Assembly (NCBI GenBank): GCA_964384105.1
Contig: CAYLJV010000002.1
Coordinates: 96,001 to 160,000 of the forward strand
From: Candidatus Hadarchaeota archaeon
Lineage (GTDB): Archaea; Hadarchaeota; Hadarchaeia; Hadarchaeales; JAGGTB01
DNA: 64,000 bases
Direction: 5' to 3'
Below, piece by piece: positions 1,480-14,677 of the stretch; the first letter of the stretch is position 1; each line of letters begins with the position of its first letter. The position numbers and the translations under genes are program-made. Below the pieces are notes generated by a model. It saw nothing but the letters and a program-made list of their open reading frames with translations, was not told the origin of the DNA and ran no database searches.

Positions 1480-2769
1480 CTATTTTTGAACACTCATCTT
1501 TGCTCCAAGTCCCTGCATATCTTTAACAAATCCGGGGTAAGATATCCCAATATTCTCGGCACCTTTTATTTTAACAGTTTTATCAGCGGATAATCCAGCA
1601 ATTGCAAAAGCCATGGCCATTCTATGATCCCCATAGGAATCCACAGTTCCACCCCTCAAACTCGGGCTCCCCCGAATTTTAAGTTCGTCTTCTGACTCCT
1701 CAATTTCTGCACCAAGCTTCTTTAATTCACTAGTTAGAACACTCAGCCGATCTACTTCCTTATATCTCAAATGTGATATATTATAGAGTCTTGTTCGACC
1801 CTCAGCCACCGAACCCAAAACAGCTAGAACAGGGACTAAATCGGGAGTATTTAAACAATCTGCTTCGATTCCCTGCAACTGCTGTTTTCCAGATACTTTT
1901 ATCTCCTTACCTTTGACTTCCAAATCAGCTCCAAAATCCTCCAAAAGCTGAATAATCTTTTTATCTCCTTGAGCATCCTTAGGATCCAGATTCTTAACCA
2001 CCACTTCTTTGCCCGCTAAAGCGCCGGCACCCAACAAAAACGCTGCTGAAGAAAAATCACCTGGAACAGTGAATTCAAATGGCTTGAAAATCTGCTTACC
2101 CGGGATACTATAATTCATTAAAGAAGAAACGATTTCAATATCGGCACCTACAAGTTCCAACGCTCTAAGAGTCATAAGAACATAGGGTTTTGACTTAAGT
2201 TCATCCTCTACTTCTATATCAGCTCCAACTTCTGAATAGGGGGTTGCAATTAAGAGAGCGGAGACAAACTGAGAGCTTATTTTACCGGTTATAGTAGTTT
2301 CACCTCCTTCCAAACCACCGCCTACAACCACCGGCGGCCTACCATTTCTACCTCGAGCTTCCGCATCAGCTCCTAGGTCCACTAATGAACTTATCAGTGG
2401 GCCCATTGGTCTCTTCAAAATAGATTCATCCCCAGTCAGCAGAACTCGCTCGGAGGATAACGCGGAAATCGCCGTCATTAATCTCAGAGTTGTACCAGAA
2501 TTACGAACATCAATCTTATTCTTCCGTGGTCTAATCTTCCCTCCAGTTCCCGAGATAATTACACTATTCTCTTCGTATTGAACCTGACCGCCCAAGGTCT
2601 CAACCGCTTCCATAGTCGCCCGAGTATCCAAACTCAAAAGAGGTTTTCGTATCGTACTCTTACCATCTGCTAATAAAGCCACTGATAATAACCTATGAGT
2701 GTAACTCTTCGAAGAAGGAGCCTCAATCTCCCCGTCCAGATCAGACGGTCTAACTATTAACCAGCTCAT
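1480..2769 (-). CDS. aroA: 3-phosphoshikimate 1-carboxyvinyltransferase (EPSP synthase)
   Basis: APSSKSYTHR, NSGTTLR, SSQFVSALL, LRYKEVDR and DHRMAM motifs. Confidence 0.96.
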   Translation of the reverse strand: MSWLIVRPSDLDGEIEAPSSKSYTHRLLSVALLADGKSTIRKPLLSLDTRATMEAVETLGGQVQYEENSVIISGTGGKIRPRKNKIDVRNSGTTLRLMTAISALSSERVLLTGDESILKRPMGPLISSLVDLGADAEARGRNGRPPVVVGGGLEGGETTITGKISSQFVSALLIATPYSEVGADIEVEDELKSKPYVLMTLRALELVGADIEIVSSLMNYSIPGKQIFKPFEFTVPGDFSSAAFLLGAGALAGKEVVVKNLDPKDAQGDKKIIQLLEDFGADLEVKGKEIKVSGKQQLQGIEADCLNTPDLVPVLAVLGSVAEGRTRLYNISHLRYKEVDRLSVLTSELKKLGAEIEESEDELKIRGSPSLRGGTVDSYGDHRMAMAFAIAGLSADKTVKIKGAENIGISYPGFVKDMQGLGAKMSVQK

Positions 2770-2881
2770 AAAACTCTATTAAGAAATTCTCATACGATGG
2801 ATTTAAGAACTTTTGTTCTTCGGAAGAAATTTACGATTAATTTTTAATTGCATGATAACAATATTCATCGAGGAGTCAAAA

Positions 2882-3676
2882 ATGTCTGAAATAGGTAAAG
2901 AAATAAGAATGGAAAGAATCACCAATCGAGAAACAGGAAGAACAATAATCGTTCCAATGGATCACGGAATAACGATGGGTCCCATAGACGGATTAAGAGA
3001 CATGACTGGTGCAGTCAACAAGGTAGCCGAAGGCGGAGCCAATGCGGTTCTAGTCCACAAGGGTATAGTGAGAGCAGGCCATAGAGGCTATGGACAGGAT
3101 ATAGGTCTAATAATACACCTGTCTGCTAGCACTGTCCTAGGACCAGATCCTAACAAAAAAGTAGCTGTCACCTCCGTAGAAGAAGCCGTTTCTTTGGGGG
3201 CAGATGCTGTATCTGTTCACGTAAATGTAGGGGCTGAAAATGAGTCCGAGCAACTTAGAGAAATGGGCCGAATCTCGGAAGATTGTGCAGCTTGGGGTAT
3301 GCCTTTAATCGCTATGATGTACCCTAGAGGCAAAAAAGTCGAGGACCAACATGATGTTGAAGCAGTAGCACATGCAGCAAGAGTCGGAGCTGAACTTGGA
3401 GCGGATATAATAAAAACAAACTTCACAGGAACATCCTCTTCTTTCAGAGAGGTAACTGATGGCTGTCCGGTTCCGGTCGTAATTGCCGGCGGACCAAAAG
3501 CGGATACTGATATGGATATCTTAGAAATGGTCTCGAAATCGATACGGGTTGGAGGAGCTGGCGTATCTATAGGTCGTAATGTCTTTCAACACAAAAACCC
3601 AACCGCTATGATACGAGCGCTCTCGAGAATAATTAACGAAGGCGCATCCGCTAAAGAAGCCGCGGAAGAGTTATAG
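2882..3676 (+). CDS. 2-amino-3,7-dideoxy-D-threo-hept-6-ulosonate synthase (DhnA-type class I aldolase, archaeal AroA')
   Basis: [27 protein letters not shown] motifs; directly upstream of DHQ synthase II; start moved to the ATG after GAGGAG. Confidence 0.9.
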
Positions 3677-3679
3677 GTC

Positions 3680-4789
3680 GTGAATCTCATGCGGAAAGAA
3701 GCATGGGTCAAAGCAGATTGGAATGAATCTTGGGACAAAAGAAAAAAATACATAACGTCCGCCCTAGAGGCGGGTGCCGATGGCCTAATAATCCCACCAG
3801 ACGACATAGAAAAGACCCGAAAATTAGGAAATATCAAAGTAATTTCAAGCTCAAAAGAAGCCGATGTACTCCTGATAAAGGCGTCGACCACCGATGAAGT
3901 AGATCAAGCTCTAGAAGAAATTGAAGAAAAAGAAAATGAAGTAGCCCTCTACATTGAGATTACTGGAAAAGAGCTTGAGAGAGCAGCTGTCGAAGCAGGA
4001 GATAGCGTTGACTTCCTTATCACCATAGCCAAAGATTGGAAAGTTATACCTCTAGAAAACATAATAGCAGAGCTGCAAGACTCAAAAGCTAAGATATTTG
4101 CCGGAGTTAAAGATTCTAAAGAAGCTAAAACGGCAATTGAAACACTGGAAGTAGGTGCAGACGGAGTAGTTTTGGACCCACGAGAGAAAGGTATCGAAGA
4201 AATCAGGAAAACCTGTGAAACCTTGGAGGACTTAGAGACCGAAAAATTCCAGTTAGCCCCAGCTAAAATCACAAAAGTAGAACCAAGTGGAATGGGAGAC
4301 AGAGTTTGCGTAGACACTACATCTCTCATGAAACTCGGAGAAGGAATGCTTGTCGGAAGCCAATCAAACGGCATGTTTCTCGTACATTCTGAAACACTCG
4401 AAAGCGAATACGTTTCGTCCAGACCATTCAGAGTAAACGCCGGCGCAGTCCATGCCTACATACAAGTGCCAGGTGGTAAAACAAAATATTTATCAGAATT
4501 AGAAAGTGGTGAGAAAGTCCTAATAGTAAACTCAGAAGGTGAATCCAAAGAAGCAACAGTAGGACGTGTAAAGATAGAAAGAAGGCCTATGCTTCTAATA
4601 GAAGCGGAAACCGAAGGAAGGAAAATAAGAACCTTACTTCAAAATGCGGAAACAATAAACCTGGTAGATAAGGAAGGCAATCCGATCTCAGTTTCAGAAT
4701 TAGAACCAGGAGACGAAGTTTTAACAAATCTTCAAAAAGGTGGACGTCACTTCGGAGCTCAAGTAGAAGAAACACTCGTTGAAAAGTAA
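3680..4789 (+). CDS. 3-dehydroquinate synthase II (archaeal AroB')
   Basis: DWKVIPLENIIA, GDRVCVDT, RPFRVNAGAVH, LQNAETI, GRHFG motifs. Confidence 0.94.
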   Translation: MNLMRKEAWVKADWNESWDKRKKYITSALEAGADGLIIPPDDIEKTRKLGNIKVISSSKEADVLLIKASTTDEVDQALEEIEEKENEVALYIEITGKELERAAVEAGDSVDFLITIAKDWKVIPLENIIAELQDSKAKIFAGVKDSKEAKTAIETLEVGADGVVLDPREKGIEEIRKTCETLEDLETEKFQLAPAKITKVEPSGMGDRVCVDTTSLMKLGEGMLVGSQSNGMFLVHSETLESEYVSSRPFRVNAGAVHAYIQVPGGKTKYLSELESGEKVLIVNSEGESKEATVGRVKIERRPMLLIEAETEGRKIRTLLQNAETINLVDKEGNPISVSELEPGDEVLTNLQKGGRHFGAQVEETLVEK

Positions 4790-4973
4790 TTCCAAAAACT
4801 CCTATTTTCTTTTATTTATCAAAGAAATCCAATCTGGGTTGAGAATTTTTGTTAAATTTAAATATTTGAGTTAAAAAGGTTAAAACGAACTCGCCCCTCT
4901 TAAAGTAAATTCTGTTTAATTAATAGGCGTTAAAATGATTATATCCAAAAACCAGAAATCAGGAGGGGGAAAT

Positions 4974-5684
4974 TTGATCGACTTTGGGAAACTCAAAATC
5001 CAGACGCCTGCCGTCTGTGCATCAGTGATCGGAACCGATTTAGACTCCATGAAAGATTCCTTAGAGAAAGCCATCAAAGCAGGAGCCGATATAGTAGAAT
5101 TAAGATTGGATAGATTAGAAAAAATCAGAGGATGGGAAGAATTACTCAAACACAATATACCAAAAATAGTGACTGTAAGATCAAAAAAAGAAGGTGGATT
5201 TTTTGAAGGAAAAGAAAAAGAGCGAATCGAAATCTTGATAGATGCAATAAACAGAGGAGTGGACTGCATCGATATCTCGCTCACGACACCCCAGATAGAA
5301 AAAAAGAATGTTTTAAAAAATGCAAAAAAGGCTGGTTCAAGTATTATACTATCCTTTCACGACTTTGAAAAAACGCCGACTTACGAAGAACTGAAGAAAA
5401 AAGCAGAAGAAATGAAAAAAAATGGGGCAGACTTCGCAAAAATAATAGGATTCGCCAGATCACCCGAAGATTCAATCGACATTCTAAAATTCCTTATCTT
5501 AGCCCGAAAAGAGGTCGAAATTCCTCTAATAGCCTTTGCAATGGGTGAAGAAGGAAAGTTCACAAGAGTCTCTGCACCTCTTTTAGGTTCACCTTTGACA
5601 TACTCTTCGGTCGGAGAAAAAGCCGCCCCGGGACAGATGGACGTTGAAGAAGTCATAGAAATACTAGATAAATTTAGAAAATAG
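4974..5684 (+). CDS. aroD: Type I 3-dehydroquinate dehydratase
   Basis: DIVELRLD, SFHDFEKTP, AMGEEGKFTR, APGQ motifs; probable TTG start after GGAGG. Confidence 0.92.
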   Translation: MIDFGKLKIQTPAVCASVIGTDLDSMKDSLEKAIKAGADIVELRLDRLEKIRGWEELLKHNIPKIVTVRSKKEGGFFEGKEKERIEILIDAINRGVDCIDISLTTPQIEKKNVLKNAKKAGSSIILSFHDFEKTPTYEELKKKAEEMKKNGADFAKIIGFARSPEDSIDILKFLILARKEVEIPLIAFAMGEEGKFTRVSAPLLGSPLTYSSVGEKAAPGQMDVEEVIEILDKFRK

Positions 5685-5738
5685 AATCAGTTACAAAGGA
5701 GTTTTTTACTAATAAGCATATTTTCAACTGGGAATAGG

Positions 5739-6593
5739 ATGATTAAGGGAAGTACAAAAGTTATAGCTTTATTAGGCGACCCAGTAGAACACAGCATATC
5801 TCCCGAAATGCAAAACGCTGCATTGGAAAAGAAAAAACTGGATTTTGTTTATGTGGCTTTTAAAGTACCTGAAAAATACGTCGAAGAATCGATTAAGGGA
5901 ATAAAATCCCTCGGTCTCAAAGGAGCGAACGTTACTATCCCTCACAAATCGGCCGTTATGAAATATCTTGACGAACTAGATGAAATCTCTCAGAAAATTG
6001 GAGCTGTAAACACAATAAATGAAGAAAATGGAAAGCTAAAAGGATACAATACGGACGGAAAAGGAGCTCTTAGAGCTCTAAGACGGAAAATCGGTGAAAT
6101 TCGCGGAAAAGAAGTGCTAATACTTGGAGCAGGCGGGGCTGCAAGGGCCATAGCCTTCACACTAATCGAATCAGGAGCCAATTTAAAAATCTCAAATCGT
6201 ACAGAAACTAAAGCCAATGATCTCGCGGCGGAATTAAAAGATAAGACTGGAAAATCTGTAACCCAAATACCCCAGAAAAGTAGAGAACTAGAAAATTCAA
6301 TAAAAGAATCAGATATCTTAATCAACTCAACATCAGTAGGGATGCATCCGAAAACCGACGAAACCATAGTAGACTCAGAAATGATGCATTCAAATCTTAC
6401 AGTTATGGATATCGTATACAACCCTCTAAAAACGCTATTGCTTCGAGAAGCAGATAAAGCCGGAGCAAAAACAATAAGCGGTATCGAAATGCTGATCCAG
6501 CAAGGTGCAGAATCCTTCGAAATCTGGACAGGTAAGAAAGCCCCAATCAACGTCATGCGAGATTATGCCATCAAAGCTATGGAGAGAAGATAA
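5739..6593 (+). CDS. aroE: Shikimate dehydrogenase
   Basis: HSISP, NVTIPHK, GAVNT, NTDG, GAGGAARA, DIVYNP motifs. Confidence 0.96.
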   Translation: MIKGSTKVIALLGDPVEHSISPEMQNAALEKKKLDFVYVAFKVPEKYVEESIKGIKSLGLKGANVTIPHKSAVMKYLDELDEISQKIGAVNTINEENGKLKGYNTDGKGALRALRRKIGEIRGKEVLILGAGGAARAIAFTLIESGANLKISNRTETKANDLAAELKDKTGKSVTQIPQKSRELENSIKESDILINSTSVGMHPKTDETIVDSEMMHSNLTVMDIVYNPLKTLLLREADKAGAKTISGIEMLIQQGAESFEIWTGKKAPINVMRDYAIKAMERR

Positions 6594-6594
6594 A

Positions 6595-7455
6595 GTGAAG
6601 ATAGCAATCTTGGGGGCTGGATCTATGGGTAAGTGGTTTGCGAGATTTGCTAAAGAGAGAAGTTGGGAGATATCCATCTATGATATTAATAAGAAAAAAG
6701 GAAGAAAAATCTCAAAAGAACTAGGACTGGAATTTTCACCAAATAAAGAAGATGCTGTAGAAAATGCAGACGTAATTTTGATTTCTGTACCCATAACGGA
6801 AACTCCCAAACTGATAAAAGAGGCTTCAGAATCCGTAAAAGAAGGGTCTCTGCTAATAGACATTGCCTCGGTAAAGGAAAGAGCAGTAGAATCCATGAAA
6901 GAAGTGAAAAAAAGAATGGAATTAGTTTCAATACACCCTCTTTTCGGTCCAGGGGCCAAGAATCTGGATAATAAAAATATAATATCTATTCCTGTAGAAA
7001 AAGGAGAAAAATATCAACGATTAAAGAGCGAGTTTTCAGAACTTGGTGCAAAAATAGTAGAAATGGAAGCAGAAAAACATGACAAGCTTATGGCAGTTAT
7101 ACAATCTCTAACTCACTTCTCCCTCCTGACCCATTTTTCGGCATTCACCTCCATGGACTATAGTGACGAAGCAGAAAAATTTGAAACTCCCATATTCAAG
7201 AATTTATTCGATCTAACCAAAGCGTTCATGTACGAAAATCCTAAACTCTGTGCGGATATTCAGAGAGAAAACAGATACTCGGAGATAGCTAGGAATTCTA
7301 TAATAGAGGCTTCTAGAAACCTGAATGAGACGTTAGAATCAGGAGATATCAAAAAGATAGAAGAAATTTTCGACGAAGCCAGGGAAAAGATTGGCCCAGA
7401 AAAAATAGAGGCAGCTTATAAAAAAATTTACGCAAAGAAGGGAAATGAAAAATGA
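6595..7455 (+). CDS. tyrA: Prephenate dehydrogenase
   Basis: GAGSMG Rossmann motif, DIASVK, HPLFGP, HDKLMAVIQSLTH; probable GTG start at 6595. Confidence 0.9.
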   Translation: MKIAILGAGSMGKWFARFAKERSWEISIYDINKKKGRKISKELGLEFSPNKEDAVENADVILISVPITETPKLIKEASESVKEGSLLIDIASVKERAVESMKEVKKRMELVSIHPLFGPGAKNLDNKNIISIPVEKGEKYQRLKSEFSELGAKIVEMEAEKHDKLMAVIQSLTHFSLLTHFSAFTSMDYSDEAEKFETPIFKNLFDLTKAFMYENPKLCADIQRENRYSEIARNSIIEASRNLNETLESGDIKKIEEIFDEAREKIGPEKIEAAYKKIYAKKGNEK

Positions 7456-8273
7456 AAGTGGGAATATTAGGACCTCGTGGAACTTACAGCGAAATAGCAG
7501 CTAAAAATTACTTTAAAGAAGAAATAGAGATAGTGACATACTCCTTAATAACAGAAGTAGCAGAGAGTGTTGAAAAAGGAGAAATACCCGCAGGTGTAGT
7601 ACCAGTAGAAAGCCTCAGAGAAGGCTCCGTAGGGGAAACTTTAGATGCGCTAGCGTGGTTGGACGTGAAAATAAAGGCCGAAATAGTGATAGAAGTAACC
7701 CATAATCTATTGGGAACTAAAGGTTCTAAAATAGAAGACATAAGACAAGTTCTATCTCACCCCCAAGCACTGGCTCAATGTAGACAGTTCCTTCGAAAGA
7801 AACTACCCGAAGCTGAGTTAATAAGCGTAAAAAGTACAGCAAAAGCGGCGAAGCAAGTCAGCAAGGTAGAAAAGCCTTTCATGGCAGCCATAGGATCCCA
7901 AGATTTAGCAGATTTATACGATCTAGAAATTATCGAAGAAAACATTCAAATAGGCAAGAAAGATGAAACGAGATTTTTAATCTTGGGAAAAGAAGATAGC
8001 GAACCTACTGGAAAAGACAAAACTTCGATAGTTTTCTATACTCGAAAGGACGAACCAGGAATACTATATAAAATACTAAAAGAATTCGGAGAAAGAAAAA
8101 TAAACCTGACAAGAGTGGAATCAAGACCATCGAAAGAGGCTTTAGGAGATTATCTATTTTTTGTCGATTTTGAAGGCCACAGAAAGGATAATAAGATAAA
8201 ACAAGCACTTGAAAAAATCAAACCAAAGGTTGCAACTCTCAAGATTATAGGCTCCTATCCTAAGATATTTTGA
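7452..8273 (+). CDS. pheA: Prephenate dehydratase with ACT domain
   Basis: LGPRGTYS, SHPQALAQC, ETRF, NLTRVESRP motifs. Confidence 0.95.
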   Translation: MKVGILGPRGTYSEIAAKNYFKEEIEIVTYSLITEVAESVEKGEIPAGVVPVESLREGSVGETLDALAWLDVKIKAEIVIEVTHNLLGTKGSKIEDIRQVLSHPQALAQCRQFLRKKLPEAELISVKSTAKAAKQVSKVEKPFMAAIGSQDLADLYDLEIIEENIQIGKKDETRFLILGKEDSEPTGKDKTSIVFYTRKDEPGILYKILKEFGERKINLTRVESRPSKEALGDYLFFVDFEGHRKDNKIKQALEKIKPKVATLKIIGSYPKIF

Positions 8274-10335: not shown

Positions 10336-10478
10336 TGAACTCCCTCATTCTATTCATCGACTAGATTTAAGTTCTTTTCATTAAATAAGACCTTTCACAA
10401 ATATTAGAAAAAGAGCATCCCGACCATCTCTTATCCGTATTTATAAACAAAGCTGGAAAATGTAGTTTGGTTTTGAAA

Positions 10479-11240
10479 ATGAAGGAGATAGAGCCAGACC
10501 ACCCCCGAGCGGAGTCACTTAGAATAAGAAAGAAAATAGCTGAAGGTTTCAAAAAAGAACTAGTAACTCCCGAAGGGCTATCCGCCCATGGTCGAGGTGA
10601 AGCCTTCGACTATCTGCTTGGAGAGAAAACTACAGAATGGGCAAAAAAAGCAATAAGAGCAGGAGCCGCAAAAATACTCCTAGCAAAAGAGCCAGTTTTT
10701 TCTGTGAATGGAAATGTTGCTGCACTAGTTCCAAAAGAAATAGCAAAACTGGAGAAAATAATCGATGTCAAAATCGAAGTCAACCTTTTTCATAAATCCA
10801 AAAATCGAGCGAAGAGAATAGCAAAGCACCTAAAGAAAAATGGTGTTTCTAAAGTACTAGGTATAGATAAAGAACATTACACCTCGATTCCCGAAATAAA
10901 AAGTCATAGAAAAACAGTCGATAAGAGAGGTATAAAGAAAGCGGATTTGATTCTGGTACCACTAGAAGATGGAGACCGAAGCGAAGCACTGAAAAAAATA
11001 GGAAAAACGATAGTTACAGTAGACCTAAATCCACTATCTCGAACTGCCAAAGCTGCGGACGTTACAATCGTGGACAACGTAGTCAGGACACTACCAGCGC
11101 TGATCAAAGAAATAAATGAACTAAAAGACTACCCCCGAGAAAAACTTGAAGATATTTATGATAATTTTGATAATGAAAAAAATCTGAAATCTATGATCAA
11201 AAATATACTGAATCGATTAGAGGAACTCTCGGGAGTCTAG
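10479..11240 (+). CDS. Phosphopantothenate synthetase (4-phosphopantoate--beta-alanine ligase)
   Basis: HPRAESL, AHGRGEAFDYLLGE, SVNGN, VPLEDGDR, DLNPLSRT motifs. Confidence 0.92.
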   Translation: MKEIEPDHPRAESLRIRKKIAEGFKKELVTPEGLSAHGRGEAFDYLLGEKTTEWAKKAIRAGAAKILLAKEPVFSVNGNVAALVPKEIAKLEKIIDVKIEVNLFHKSKNRAKRIAKHLKKNGVSKVLGIDKEHYTSIPEIKSHRKTVDKRGIKKADLILVPLEDGDRSEALKKIGKTIVTVDLNPLSRTAKAADVTIVDNVVRTLPALIKEINELKDYPREKLEDIYDNFDNEKNLKSMIKNILNRLEELSGV

Positions 11241-13694
11241 TTAATCTTTTTTGGATTCTCTTATCTCTCTAAGAATTCTAGAAGTCGTCTCCTTTGGATT
11301 TGAAGAATTATAGATAGCACTACCTACAACACATATATCTGCTCCTGCCTTTGCTACTTCCTTAGCAACTCCCTCTTTGATACCACCAGCAACCGCTAGT
11401 TTAAAATCTCCAGCAATTTTCCTAGCTTCGGCCAGCAGCTTTTTCTTTTCATAAATCCCTCGTCCCTTAAGCTGCTCACTGATTCCCCTATGAATACAGA
11501 AAATAACCCGATCTTCATAGCCCTTCAACTCCTTAACAAGTTCACTCAACTTCTCTAAAGGATCAGAACAATCTATAAAATCTATCAGAATAGCTCCATC
11601 ACGCTGGACCGACTCACTCAGGGCTTCTGTTATTTTGTTTTTACCCCCAATTGCCAGAACAGCAGAAATATCTGCGCCAGGCCTAAAAGCAATCCTAGCC
11701 TCTAAACCACCAACATCCATCGTCTTGAGATCAGCCAAAATCAAAGCTTCTGGCGCAACTTCCCGTAAAGGAGGAATAAGATTATCCACTCCATGTCTTT
11801 TAATCGCCGGAGTACCCGCCTCGATTATACGTGCGCCTGCCTCATAAGACTGTTCAGCAATCTCACAGATTGTATCTATGTCAGCATCCATATCAAGTGC
11901 TACCTGAACTTGAGGATAGTTTATCCTATCTAGAGGACTAACGAACACATCTATTTTCTCAAACTTTTTGGGCTCACATAGAGGAACACCCTCTATCGGA
12001 ACACCATTTTCAGCCCACCCTCTCTCCTCATAATACTTTTTCAGCAAATCACCCAGATCAACCTCAAAACCCTCAGGTAACACATCTTGATCGTAATCAA
12101 ATCCCTCTCGAGCATTGAAAAGCCGTTCTAAAGTATAGATCCGAGAACCAATTTCTTTAAGATCCTCATTACTCCACTCAAATCCCGTCAGAGCAGAAAG
12201 AAGATTGGCGATATCGTCGAGTTCATAGTCAATCGTTGAAAAGAGAGCAATCCCATGAAATTTGCAAGCAATCATGCTGTCGTAAACCGCATAAGCATCC
12301 TGCATTTTTTTGACGAGTTCGGGTTTTCCTTCCTCCTTAGCCGGATCAACGAATTCCGGATTACTAATTATTTCGGGTAAGATCGTAAAGGCTCGCAAAT
12401 GGCAACCGCCTCTATTAGAAGTGGCATAAGCGAGGGCTATACCTTTAGCCCCTCTAGGATCATAAGCAGGTATTTCAAGTCCCTTGACATGAAAGGCTCT
12501 ATCTTCTTTTCCAAACTCCTCCGCAGCTTTAGCTACTCCCTTCGAAAAGACTGTCTTTCCTTTTCCAATATCTTTGATAAGCTTCTTAGCTTCCTTCAAG
12601 TCAGAAACTTCGCCTACTTCCCTTGCAAAACCAAGAATGTTCCCTACAGAAATGGTATCCAATCCAAATTCTTCACAAAGTTCTGACAGAGGCATGATCT
12701 CATTTTCGTAATCGTAGAAACCTGAATTTGGGCCGAGCATAGCAACCGATTCATACTCCGGCCCTTTCGTCTCCCCACTACCAATATTCACTATTCGTCC
12801 ACATCCAGTGGGGCAAGCGAAACACGCCTTCTGATCGGTTAGATACTCTTCATAAACCGTCTCCCCCGAAAAAGGATCTACCTGATCAAAATCCAACGGT
12901 TCACCCGAAAAATTATCCTTCGGAACCATCCCTGCAGCGGTTATCCTATGTACTAAAAGAGAAGTTCCAAATCTCGAGAGAGTCCCATCAGAACCGGTTA
13001 TAGGATTAGTTTTTACGGTCTGCTTAATCTTTTTTAGAACTTTGTTAAATTCTTCCTCGTGGGATATCTCCAAACTATTATTTCCCCTAACTACAATAGC
13101 CTTCAATTTCTTCGATCCCATCACCGCGCCCAAACCACCTCTACCAGCAGCGCGAGTCTCTGAAAGTAAACATGATACATTGACCAAATTTTCCCCAGCA
13201 GGGCCTATCTCAACCACTCTAGAATTCTTATAAGAATCTCTCAAACGCTTCTCAACATCCGAGGTTTTCTTACCCCAAAGCTCCGAAGCATCCTTCAAAG
13301 AAACATCTCCATCGTCGATAAGTAAATACATCGGGCCCTCCGATTTCCCTTCTATAATAACTCCATCAAAGCCTGCCTTCTTTAGGTACGCTCCAAAAGA
13401 CCCACCCATAGAGCAGTCAAAAATCGTTCCAGTTAGAGGAGACTTAGAACATATAGATATCCTACCAGCACCAGGAAAAGTGGTTCCAGTGAGAGGACCG
13501 GTCATGAAAATTAATTTATTTTCTTCAGAAAGAGGATCCACATTAGCCTCTAGTTCATCGTAAAGAACACTACATCCGTATCCTCTACCACCCAGATAGT
13601 TGTATGCTCTCTTTTCATCCAAATTTTCGACTTCAATTTTCTTATCAGCAAGATTAACTCTCAGAACCTTACCTACATATCCACCTAGTTTCAT
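11241..13694 (-). CDS. Aldehyde:ferredoxin oxidoreductase (W-pterin AOR family) fused to a C-terminal 3-hexulose-6-phosphate synthase domain
   Basis: AOR part: KSPLTG, GRGGLGAVMGSKKLKA, CFACPTGC, GPEYE, GLDTIS, YDPRG, RGGCHL. HPS part (~11241-11920): QVALD, IEAGTP, ADLKTMDVG, IHRG, VAGGI, VVGSAI. One uninterrupted frame. Confidence 0.9.
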   Translation of the reverse strand: MKLGGYVGKVLRVNLADKKIEVENLDEKRAYNYLGGRGYGCSVLYDELEANVDPLSEENKLIFMTGPLTGTTFPGAGRISICSKSPLTGTIFDCSMGGSFGAYLKKAGFDGVIIEGKSEGPMYLLIDDGDVSLKDASELWGKKTSDVEKRLRDSYKNSRVVEIGPAGENLVNVSCLLSETRAAGRGGLGAVMGSKKLKAIVVRGNNSLEISHEEEFNKVLKKIKQTVKTNPITGSDGTLSRFGTSLLVHRITAAGMVPKDNFSGEPLDFDQVDPFSGETVYEEYLTDQKACFACPTGCGRIVNIGSGETKGPEYESVAMLGPNSGFYDYENEIMPLSELCEEFGLDTISVGNILGFAREVGEVSDLKEAKKLIKDIGKGKTVFSKGVAKAAEEFGKEDRAFHVKGLEIPAYDPRGAKGIALAYATSNRGGCHLRAFTILPEIISNPEFVDPAKEEGKPELVKKMQDAYAVYDSMIACKFHGIALFSTIDYELDDIANLLSALTGFEWSNEDLKEIGSRIYTLERLFNAREGFDYDQDVLPEGFEVDLGDLLKKYYEERGWAENGVPIEGVPLCEPKKFEKIDVFVSPLDRINYPQVQVALDMDADIDTICEIAEQSYEAGARIIEAGTPAIKRHGVDNLIPPLREVAPEALILADLKTMDVGGLEARIAFRPGADISAVLAIGGKNKITEALSESVQRDGAILIDFIDCSDPLEKLSELVKELKGYEDRVIFCIHRGISEQLKGRGIYEKKKLLAEARKIAGDFKLAVAGGIKEGVAKEVAKAGADICVVGSAIYNSSNPKETTSRILREIRESKKD

Positions 13695-13828
13695 TTGAAG
13701 ACCATCTCTATTGATAAAATAACCCAATAAATAATTATTATTCTACTAATAAACTCTGAGTCTCTATATTGGCAATACTTTAAGAGCTGAAAAGAGTTGA
13801 GTAAAAAACAGACAAAAGGTTACCCAAA

Positions 13829-14677
13829 ATGAATAAAGATAAGATAACAGTACAAAATTTCCAAAAAATGAAGGAAAATAAAGAAAAAATCTCAATGTTA
13901 ACTGCTTACGATTATCCAACAGCAAAGTTAATCGAAGAATCAAATATAGAAGCAGTTTTGGTAGGCGATTCACTGGGAAATATAATTCTGGGCTATAAAA
14001 ACACCCTTCCTGTAACTCTAGAGGACATATTGCATCACACAAAAGCCGTAGCAAGAGGGATAGACCATTCCATGCTAATCGCAGATATGCCTTTTAACTC
14101 GTACCAAAGCAGTACAGAAGAGGCTATAAAAAACGCTGGTAAACTCATAAAGGAGGGAAATGCCGAAGCAATCAAGATAGAAGGAGGAAAAGAATCCCTT
14201 AAACAGATAAAAGGAATTTTAGAAACCGGCATCCCTGTAATGGGACATTTAGGCTTAACACCCCAAAAAATACTCCAGTTTGGGGAATACAAAGTTCGAG
14301 GAAAAACAGGAAAAGAAGCCTATAGGATTTTTGAAGAAGCCAAAATGCTGGAGGAAGCTGGTGTGTTCAGCCTAGTTTTAGAAGCTATACCCTGGGAACT
14401 AGGAGAAATAATAACCAAAAACCTTGAAATTCCTACTATTGGAATCGGTGCAGGTCCACACTGTGACGGTCAAATATTGGTTCTTCATGACATTTTAGGA
14501 CTTAGCAGTTTTTCTCCAAAATTTGCCAAAAAATACGCAGATTTAAATTCATCAATAAAGAAAGCTGTTAAAAATTTCTCAGAAGAAGTAAAAGATAAAA
14601 AATTCCCAGATTCAAAACACACATACAGTATGAAAGAAGAAGAATTCAAGAAATTTAAAGAATTGATCAAAAAATAG
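13829..14677 (+). CDS. panB: 3-methyl-2-oxobutanoate hydroxymethyltransferase
   Basis: MLTAYD, LVGDSLG, ADMPF, KIEGG, GHLGLTPQ, IGIGAG motifs. Confidence 0.96.
   Translation: MNKDKITVQNFQKMKENKEKISMLTAYDYPTAKLIEESNIEAVLVGDSLGNIILGYKNTLPVTLEDILHHTKAVARGIDHSMLIADMPFNSYQSSTEEAIKNAGKLIKEGNAEAIKIEGGKESLKQIKGILETGIPVMGHLGLTPQKILQFGEYKVRGKTGKEAYRIFEEAKMLEEAGVFSLVLEAIPWELGEIITKNLEIPTIGIGAGPHCDGQILVLHDILGLSSFSPKFAKKYADLNSSIKKAVKNFSEEVKDKKFPDSKHTYSMKEEEFKKFKELIKK

Follow-up and report, generated by a model that had tools for sequence, protein, structure and literature searches.

The stretch of DNA analysed here (hereafter the window) comprises 64,000 nucleotides from a Candidatus Hadarchaeota archaeon (contig CAYLJV010000002.1, positions 96,001 to 160,000). 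On its minus strand, at 11241..13694, it encodes an 817-residue protein in which an aldehyde:ferredoxin oxidoreductase (AOR) is fused to a hexulose-6-phosphate synthase (HPS) barrel. Both modules look catalytically whole, and both are predicted from their residues to be active. HPS thereby has a new partner and AOR occurs in a new fused form; the fusion is common among uncultured archaea and apparently undescribed. We consider it probable that the enzyme acts in the reverse ribulose-monophosphate (RuMP) pathway and that the formaldehyde released there is oxidised on the same protein, yielding formate and reduced ferredoxin.

Proposed reaction of AOR-HPS

In many archaea, pentoses are formed by the RuMP pathway working in reverse, with one formaldehyde released per pentose. 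HPS interconverts hexulose-6-phosphate and ribulose-5-phosphate plus formaldehyde, and enzymes of the AOR family convert aldehydes into acids with ferredoxin. The HPS reaction involves no other aldehyde, which makes formaldehyde the natural intermediate for the two modules to share. We know of no organisms in which the fate of this formaldehyde is settled other than those with Fae and tetrahydromethanopterin (H4MPT).

In the mechanism we propose, a separate PHI would convert fructose-6-phosphate into hexulose-6-phosphate, which the HPS barrel would split into ribulose-5-phosphate and formaldehyde; RpiA would then turn ribulose-5-phosphate into ribose-5-phosphate. The tungstopterin/[4Fe-4S] AOR module would convert the formaldehyde into formate and pass two electrons to ferredoxin. 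Such coupling would remove a toxic product, pull an otherwise unfavourable cleavage forward and recover two low-potential electrons, and the formate would probably be excreted. AOR-HPS would represent a tetrahydromethanopterin-independent counterpart of Fae-Hps. That the AOR module acts on formaldehyde and that flux runs towards pentose are inferences, as would be any physical channel between the two sites.

Architecture of the fusion protein

The gene lies in a single open frame on the minus strand (11241..13727), which would give 828 residues if counted from a TTG. Translation probably does not begin at this in-frame upstream TTG (13727). The ATG at 13694 yields the 817-residue protein (P0001; 817 codons plus the stop codon at 11241-11243), and the N-termini of homologues (MxxGGYxGK) agree with that start. 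AFOR_N, AFOR_C and OMPdecase all score above their Pfam cut-offs, in that order, bearing out an earlier note that had read the frame from the letters as AOR joined to HPS.

All features of the gene are on the minus strand. The AFOR_N domain (residues 8-204, 13083..13673; 274 bits, cut-off 29.8) contains the invariant R78 and R185, and the AFOR_C match (residues 218-567, 11994..13043; 326 bits, cut-off 27) covers domains 2 and 3. The 26-residue interdomain segment 568-593 (11916..11993), delimited by the alignment of homologues and the AlphaFold2 model, consists of the AOR fold's own C-terminal tail and leads straight into strand beta-1 of HPS. It is followed by the HPS-type (beta/alpha)8 barrel (residues 594-806, 11277..11915), which matches OMPdecase with 81 bits, far above the cut-off. 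All of the motifs listed in the note are found in the translation: CFACPTGC (291-298, 12801..12824), ACKF (476-479), EYE (313-315) and GCHL (430-433) in the AOR module, and QVALD (597-601), EAGTP (625-629), DLKTMD (655-660, 11715..11732) and IHRG (734-737) in the barrel.

The fusion is genuine and widespread

We searched for proteins combining AFOR_N, AFOR_C and OMPdecase, as the note had suggested, and found the architecture to be widespread in archaea. In a protein collection clustered at 90%, all three Pfam domains are present at ~800-840 residues in 117 of the 120 best matches listed, whose sources are named Hadarchaeota, Hadarchaeales, Bathyarchaeia, Hodarchaeales (Asgard), Thaumarchaeota, Methanomethylicaceae, Nezhaarchaeales and Thermoprotei. 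Matches across both modules were found in 11 of the 80 species-representative loci kept, three of these being ~1000-residue forms from DPANN-labelled MAGs (metagenome-assembled genomes). The closest relatives are from Hadarchaeia (71% identity) and Hadarchaeum (65%), and the latter has the same gene order. Public annotation names these proteins "OMP decarboxylase/HUMPS family", "AOR C-terminal domain-containing" or "HPS", and metabolic reconstructions therefore probably miscount AOR-HPS.

Full or nearly full fusions occur in 19 of 66 Hadarchaeota species genomes, which are kin and hence not independent trials, many being 65-90% complete. One of the 19 (G004) aligns only up to residue 768, and three further genomes (G003, G006 and G058) have a cut or broken fusion. 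In a second archaeal class, that of genome G066, 39 of 62 genomes have an HPS match in a frame of at least 790 residues, the AOR half being confirmed for G066 and G067 only (via loci L020 and L028). Two genomes of this class are titled Methanomethylicota and Thermoprotei. The fusion is thus kept across several phyla, in at least 58 species-level genomes.

Could the join be an assembly chimera, or a read-through of two genes? Nothing was found in favour of this; in one related lineage, AOR and HPS are separate genes. A 354-nt contig of run X2, another sample of the study from which the window probably derives, spans 11742-12095, including the linker, with 0 differences, so that the junction check proposed in the note turned up no sign of a chimera. 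Together with the single frame in the 117 matches, which come from many independent assemblies, and the 11 loci with both modules, this contig indicates that the join is no assembly artefact, and we give the chimera practically no credence. Contigs of 199-338 nt from two salt-lake metatranscriptome runs match parts of the AOR half only, with ~97-98.5% identity; since they may be DNA carry-over, they do not demonstrate expression.

Longer variants of ~1000 residues (L025:425-3421, L026:305-3370, L027:4393-7416 and P0123) come from MAGs labelled Nanohalarchaeota and Aenigmatarchaeota and from an uncultured archaeon. In these proteins, the AOR module precedes two OMPdecase stretches forming a tandem HPS-like barrel, perhaps an intramolecular counterpart of the barrel dimer. 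Other AOR fusions were also seen. P0244 (1054 residues) joins a class-III aminotransferase, another aldehyde-forming enzyme, to AOR, and P0258 and P0265 are AORs extended at the C- or N-terminus by ferredoxin-like 4Fe-4S domains.

The AOR module

The nearest solved structure of the AOR module is P. furiosus AOR (1aor; 425 bits, 39% identity, Foldseek template modelling (TM) score 0.88). It is followed by 9mqx, 9g7j and 8c0z and then by P. furiosus formaldehyde:ferredoxin oxidoreductase (FOR; 1b25, 302 bits, 34% identity, TM 0.86), WOR5 (174 bits) and BamB (160 bits). The target-normalised Foldseek TM scores of our model are 0.89 to 9g7j and 0.88 to 1aor, and the AOR of Clostridium autoethanogenum is among the closest solved relatives. 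Membership of the FOR subfamily is not supported by this comparison, the closest characterised relative being AOR and not FOR.

Alignment with 1aor shows that C291, C294, C298 and C477 correspond to Cys288, Cys291, Cys295 and Cys494, three of the four [4Fe-4S] cysteines being supplied by CFACPTGC. Y314 and E315 (in the E313/Y314/E315 triplet) correspond to Tyr312 and Glu313, D346 (GLDTIS) to Asp343, H432 (GGCHL) to His448 and D472, which shares the DSMIACK motif with C477, to Asp489. From the literature on 1aor, we take these residues to be the cluster ligands, the active-site Glu and His and the pterin motifs. With the exception of Y314, all AOR positions mapped onto 1aor are invariant in our conservation alignment of 117 fusion proteins (43-70% identity to the window protein). 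The position of 1aor Asp338 is Glu in the window protein and Asp, Glu or Asn among the fusions. The module is a member of the tungsten aldehyde:ferredoxin oxidoreductase family, and its tungsten and pterin content and the oxidation of aldehydes are predicted from its sequence.

The HPS barrel

The C-terminal barrel is of HPS type and is predicted to have HPS activity. HPS-type NCBIfam models score 126-139 bits on this part of the protein (HPS TIGR03128 134.4-138.4, HxlAB 139, Fae-Hps 133), against 50 bits for KGPDC and 39 bits for OMPDC. Sequence comparison with the PDB gives the same picture: the best match is Hps-Phi (9lj9; 100 bits, 33% identity, aligned over the full length), followed by M. 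gastri HPS (3ajx; 84.5 bits) and 3f4w (71.7 bits), with OMPDC at 40 bits and KGPDC at 26-34 bits. Foldseek also places HPS entries on top (3ajx, TM 0.88).

Alignment with KGPDC (1xbx) shows that D601, E625, D655, K657, D660 and H735 correspond to Asp11, Glu33, Asp62, Lys64, Asp67 and His136. All six are invariant in the 117 fusions, and DLKTMD represents the D-x-K-x-x-D motif of the OMPDC suprafamily. KGPDC positions 112, 139 and 169 are D705, I738 and A769 in the window protein. These are the positions named in the PDB titles of the KGPDC mutant E112D/R139V/T169A, which reportedly has raised HPS activity; Asp and Ala match the mutant, and Ile replaces Val. D705 and A769 are invariant among the fusions, and I738 is at least 90% conserved.

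The note had allowed that the barrel might group with KGPDC or OMPDC; model scores, matches to solved structures and diagnostic residues all place it with HPS. A barrel that is no longer HPS, and serves instead as another decarboxylase of the OMPDC suprafamily or as a different aldolase, would explain why the window protein misses the curated equivalog cut-off of TIGR03128 (200 bits), why a long stem (0.5-0.59 changes per column) leads to its clade in the HPS tree and why the HxGxDxQ motif of aligned HPS structures reads HRGISEQ. Nevertheless, the best match is HPS in every library, the metal-binding and catalytic positions are kept, and positions 112, 139 and 169 are as in, or near, the KGPDC mutant. 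Moreover, 19 genomes have no HPS candidate other than this barrel, with PHI above cut-off in 17 of them, and Hadarchaeota genomes without any HPS also lack PHI (see below). We therefore regard loss of HPS function as very unlikely. Fusions of a second clade (clade B, see below) do reach the HPS cut-off: in the second class, 36 of the matches in frames of at least 790 residues score 200-219 bits.

Predicted arrangement of the two modules

An AlphaFold2 prediction on the alignment of 117 fusions gave a whole-chain mean predicted local distance difference test (pLDDT) of 93.9 and a predicted TM score (pTM) of 0.91. The linker block 581-590 has a pLDDT of 78, and loop 740-744, right after H735, is the sole segment below 50. 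Since modules of 575 and 230 residues joined by a free hinge would not be expected to reach a pTM of 0.91, the model suggests that the modules are docked in a fixed arrangement. Foldseek found no PDB chain covering both modules (best query-normalised TM 0.66). A two-chain prediction with AOR 1-572 and HPS 590-817 (A2 alignment each), run without controls, gave an ipSAE of 0.02 twice (mark 0.32), and nothing is drawn from it.

Pentose synthesis and formaldehyde sinks

The window's genome (G000; 1.62 Mb, 12 contigs) is estimated to be 90% complete. PHI is encoded on another contig as a separate frame of 195 residues (204 bits, cut-off 160), RpiA is present (246 bits), and profile searches also find the RuBisCO large subunit and eight other AFOR_N matches, that is, eight AOR paralogues. 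There is no second HPS in this genome, the next match scoring 41.8 bits, and Fae, Transketolase_N, TAL and Mch have no match in it. The genome check proposed in the note, for phi and for the absence of fae, thus came out in favour of its reading, as did the other proposed checks that were run, and nothing that the note had listed as refuting was observed. No pentose route other than the reverse RuMP pathway was found in this genome, and no HPS candidate for it other than the fused barrel.

Gene content was also compared across the 66 Hadarchaeota genomes. None of the 19 with a fusion has an HPS match other than the fused barrel; a canonical HPS above cut-off is found in none of them and in 11 other Hadarchaeota genomes. 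PHI is above cut-off in 17 of the 19. Of the remaining two, G048 has a PHI interrupted by a contig end and G049, which is 70% complete, is without PHI. Neither Fae nor Mch occurs in any of the 19, and Transketolase_N has no match in 14 of them. Fae is present in seven Hadarchaeota genomes, always together with HPS in one frame of 400-442 residues (Fae-HPS), and six of the seven also have Mch. The alternation extends into the window's own genus, where G000 and G049 have AOR-HPS without Fae or Mch and five other species have Fae-HPS and Mch. In genera g12, g18 and g19 (14 genomes), HPS and PHI are both missing, and 13 of the 14 genomes have transketolase. Among four fusion genomes of other lineages, PHI is above cut-off in two and scores 156 bits in one; the DPANN (Aenigmatarchaeota) genome has none.

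Complementarity of the fusion with the Fae/H4MPT genes is thus clean in Hadarchaeota and not strict in the second class. The Hadarchaeota pattern is as expected if the fused barrel is a working HPS and the AOR module substitutes for the Fae/H4MPT sink.

Several observations weigh against oxidation of HPS-derived formaldehyde by the fused module. A solo canonical HPS without fusion, Fae or Mch is present in seven Hadarchaeota genomes, indicating that a fused oxidoreductase is not required, and in G058 a cut AOR-HPS coexists with Fae-HPS. In the second class, an additional HPS is present in 13 of the 39 fused-frame genomes, and Mch occurs in 11 of these 39 versus 11 of the 23 others, so that replacement of a missing H4MPT sink is not a general pattern. 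Since the AOR module is nearer to the broad-specificity AOR than to FOR, its sequence gives no pointer to formaldehyde specifically. Furthermore, the best formate dehydrogenase (FdhA) match in the window's genome scores 77.5 bits against a cut-off of 666 and formate-tetrahydrofolate ligase (FTHFS) was not found there. The kinship and incompleteness of the Hadarchaeota genomes and the shortfall of the window barrel at the HPS cut-off (134-138 bits) count on the same side.

The enzyme might also run in the opposite direction, with reduced low-potential ferredoxin driving formate to formaldehyde on the AOR module and the barrel immediately condensing it with ribulose-5-phosphate into hexose phosphate. 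The input would be formate, or one-carbon units together with nucleoside-derived pentoses, and formaldehyde would never leave the protein. AOR-family enzymes are reversible in principle, and the thermodynamically favoured HPS condensation would pull the unfavourable reduction of formate. C. autoethanogenum AOR, one of the closest solved relatives, is reportedly used physiologically for acid reduction. The RuBisCO large subunit and RpiA are present, so that pentose phosphates from nucleotide salvage exist, and Transketolase_N has a match in 5 of the 19 Hadarchaeota fusion genomes. However, the window's genome has no transketolase or transaldolase, so that ribulose-5-phosphate would not be regenerated for a cycle. 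With a single HPS and no other pentose route found, net flux must go towards pentose. Neither FdhA nor the ligase was found to suggest formate metabolism, and the alternation with Fae-HPS and Mch fits disposal of formaldehyde. Taken together, we find the reductive direction improbable. A weaker form of this idea is a true intramolecular formaldehyde tunnel between the tungstopterin site and the aldolase site, operating in either direction.

Clades, origin and split forms

The fusions form two clades. Clade A contains the window protein and other fusions of Hadarchaeota, Bathyarchaeia and Hodarchaeales, and clade B contains those of Methanomethylicota, Nezhaarchaeales, Thermoprotei and DPANN. 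FastTree separates the two clades in the trees of both domains, with 27 unfused AORs falling between them and the clade-B barrels sister to those of HPS-MenG/RraA-like proteins. By contrast, a quick IQ-TREE run (LG+G4, 77 AOR rows) unites A, B and three nested unfused AORs with an SH-aLRT support of 96, and in the HPS tree an approximately unbiased (AU) test, on a group chosen after the trees had been seen, does not reject A and B barrels held together (p 0.30, delta log-likelihood 11.5). Given these two results, we do not claim the two independent fusions that FastTree had suggested; either one or two origins may lie behind the clades.

Split forms are nested within the fused clade A in both trees. 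In three metagenome contigs (L102, L103 and L104; 96% alike), AOR (4001-5689, 562 residues) and HPS (5690-6505, 271 residues) are adjacent and in the same frame. The split AOR ends in ...RGWV-TAG and HPS begins at the next codon, TTG, placing the break exactly in the linker; TAG is found in all three contigs. Since other frames on these contigs also end in TAG, we read it as a true stop with stop-start coupling, and read-through or recoding of the TAG seems unlikely. The AOR/HPS partnership survives gene fission.

Solo clade-A HPS genes were also observed at the syntenic place of the fusion (L100:4417-5160 in G052 and L101:3995-4696 in G028), where tblastn finds no AOR remnant. The HPS of G052 still aligns from residue 571, indicating that the linker was retained. 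G052, which belongs to the window's genus, additionally has Fae-HPS and Mch. Where another formaldehyde sink exists, the gene seems to have lost its AOR half.

The two modules might also serve unrelated purposes. The AOR module might oxidise other aldehydes, such as those from the breakdown of amino acids or sugars, and be fused to HPS only for co-expression or stability, with no formaldehyde passed between them. It is closest to the broad-range AORs, and the nearest unfused AORs, in two Hadarchaeota genomes, share their operon with a DHDPS-family aldolase and two SIS proteins, suggesting that this sister group acts on a sugar-derived aldehyde; the solo HPS genes of G052 and G028 likewise do without AOR at the same locus. 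On the other hand, eight other AOR paralogues are available for general aldehyde oxidation, the fusion is maintained in several phyla, the split genes stay adjacent and coupled, and G052, where the AOR part was lost, has Fae-HPS and Mch. We judge unrelated functions of the two modules to be unlikely, if slightly less so than the reductive direction, and retain formaldehyde oxidation in the reverse RuMP pathway as the preferred reading.

Genomic neighbourhood

The fusion gene is flanked by two genes of the coenzyme A pathway (10467-14677). PanB (ketopantoate hydroxymethyltransferase; 13829..14677, plus strand, 378 bits) is its divergent neighbour, and PPS_PS (archaeal phosphopantothenate synthetase; 10467..11240, plus strand, 238 bits) is convergent and abuts the stop codon of the fusion. 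The order PanB, HPS with or without AOR, PPS recurs in G028 (L101), and PanB adjoins the fusion in L019. Adjacency to PanB is kept within Hadarchaeota but is missing in G052 and in all clade-B loci. We considered a functional link, PanB using a methylene one-carbon unit; given that the adjacency is missing there, we read it as inherited synteny. No operon partner conserved across the clades was found.

At four clade-B loci (L020:7657-7935, L021, L022 and L028), a ThiS/MoaD-family gene of 92-109 residues lies divergently upstream of the fusion, compatible with a link to the pterin cofactor. In the Hadarchaeia MAG with the 71% identical fusion, a 399-residue protein with two SIS domains is encoded just downstream on the same strand (L018:3235-4434), and a similar double-SIS frame of 412 residues lies on another contig of the window's genome.

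The best unfused AOR matches of the phylum scan (42-43% identity, tblastn) are at L098:4736-8585 (G010:C16) and L099 (G009:C97). Both loci show a minus-strand cluster of a DHDPS-family aldolase, AOR and two SIS proteins (133-146 bits with the PHI model), alongside a second AOR and a phosphoglucomutase-family gene. The cluster may be a sugar-acid or aldehyde module.

The window also contains an aromatic amino-acid cluster (1480-8273) encoding EPSP synthase, a DeoC-family aldolase, 3-dehydroquinate synthase II, dehydroquinase and shikimate dehydrogenase. The aldolase and 3-dehydroquinate synthase II, which we take to provide an entry into the shikimate pathway independent of erythrose-4-phosphate, are consistent with the missing transketolase.

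Comparison with known systems and implications

Fae-Hps of methanogens and their relatives joins an HPS barrel to the enzyme that removes its formaldehyde, as we propose for AOR-HPS. The role proposed for Fae-Hps in PMC5241800 is pentose synthesis by the reverse RuMP pathway (see also Goenrich 2005). The N-terminal Fae differs from the AOR module in condensing formaldehyde with tetrahydromethanopterin in a non-redox reaction, whereas the partner in AOR-HPS is a tungstopterin/[4Fe-4S] oxidoreductase of ~570 residues that would need no H4MPT. Fae-Hps barrels form a separate clade in HPS trees, and in Hadarchaeota they alternate with AOR-HPS, even within one genus.

Hps-Phi of Thermococcales (9lj9) is the best solved match of the barrel and has the same pathway role according to the accessible text of PMC3189178. 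Rather than a formaldehyde sink, its partner domain is PHI, the next enzyme of the pathway, whereas the window's genome encodes PHI separately. HPS-MenG/RraA-like proteins (~430 residues) are another natural HPS fusion, with barrels sister to those of clade-B AOR-HPS. According to PMC5241800, HPS activity has been measured in the M. hungatei member; the partner domain of these proteins is not an oxidoreductase and has no known function. P. furiosus AOR and FOR share the fold and the cofactor-binding residues of the window's module; unlike the latter, both stand alone (~605-620 residues), and the module falls outside the FOR branch.

A separate AOR has been proposed as the formaldehyde oxidiser beside HPS and PHI in metagenomic work, as far as the accessible parts of the papers show (PMC8065059; similarly PMC11291895). 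A full-text literature search, which does not reach supplementary tables or subscription journals, found no description of an AOR-HPS fusion, in keeping with the note, whose author knew of no characterised example. There is no mention of it in the available portions of PMC7143981, PMC11291895, PMC3189178, PMC5241800, PMC8065059, PMC8407382, PMC4725937, PMC10547907 and PMC6946796.

If the two reactions are coupled as we propose, AOR-HPS would be a natural case of formaldehyde sequestered beside a redox site. If instead the enzyme runs in reverse, it would provide anaerobic archaea with a one-enzyme entry of formate into hexose phosphate, and it would be a template for the formate-to-formaldehyde step that is lacking in synthetic one-carbon assimilation. 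For lineages without the Fae/H4MPT route, the fusion offers a testable answer to the question of what becomes of the formaldehyde released in pentose synthesis.

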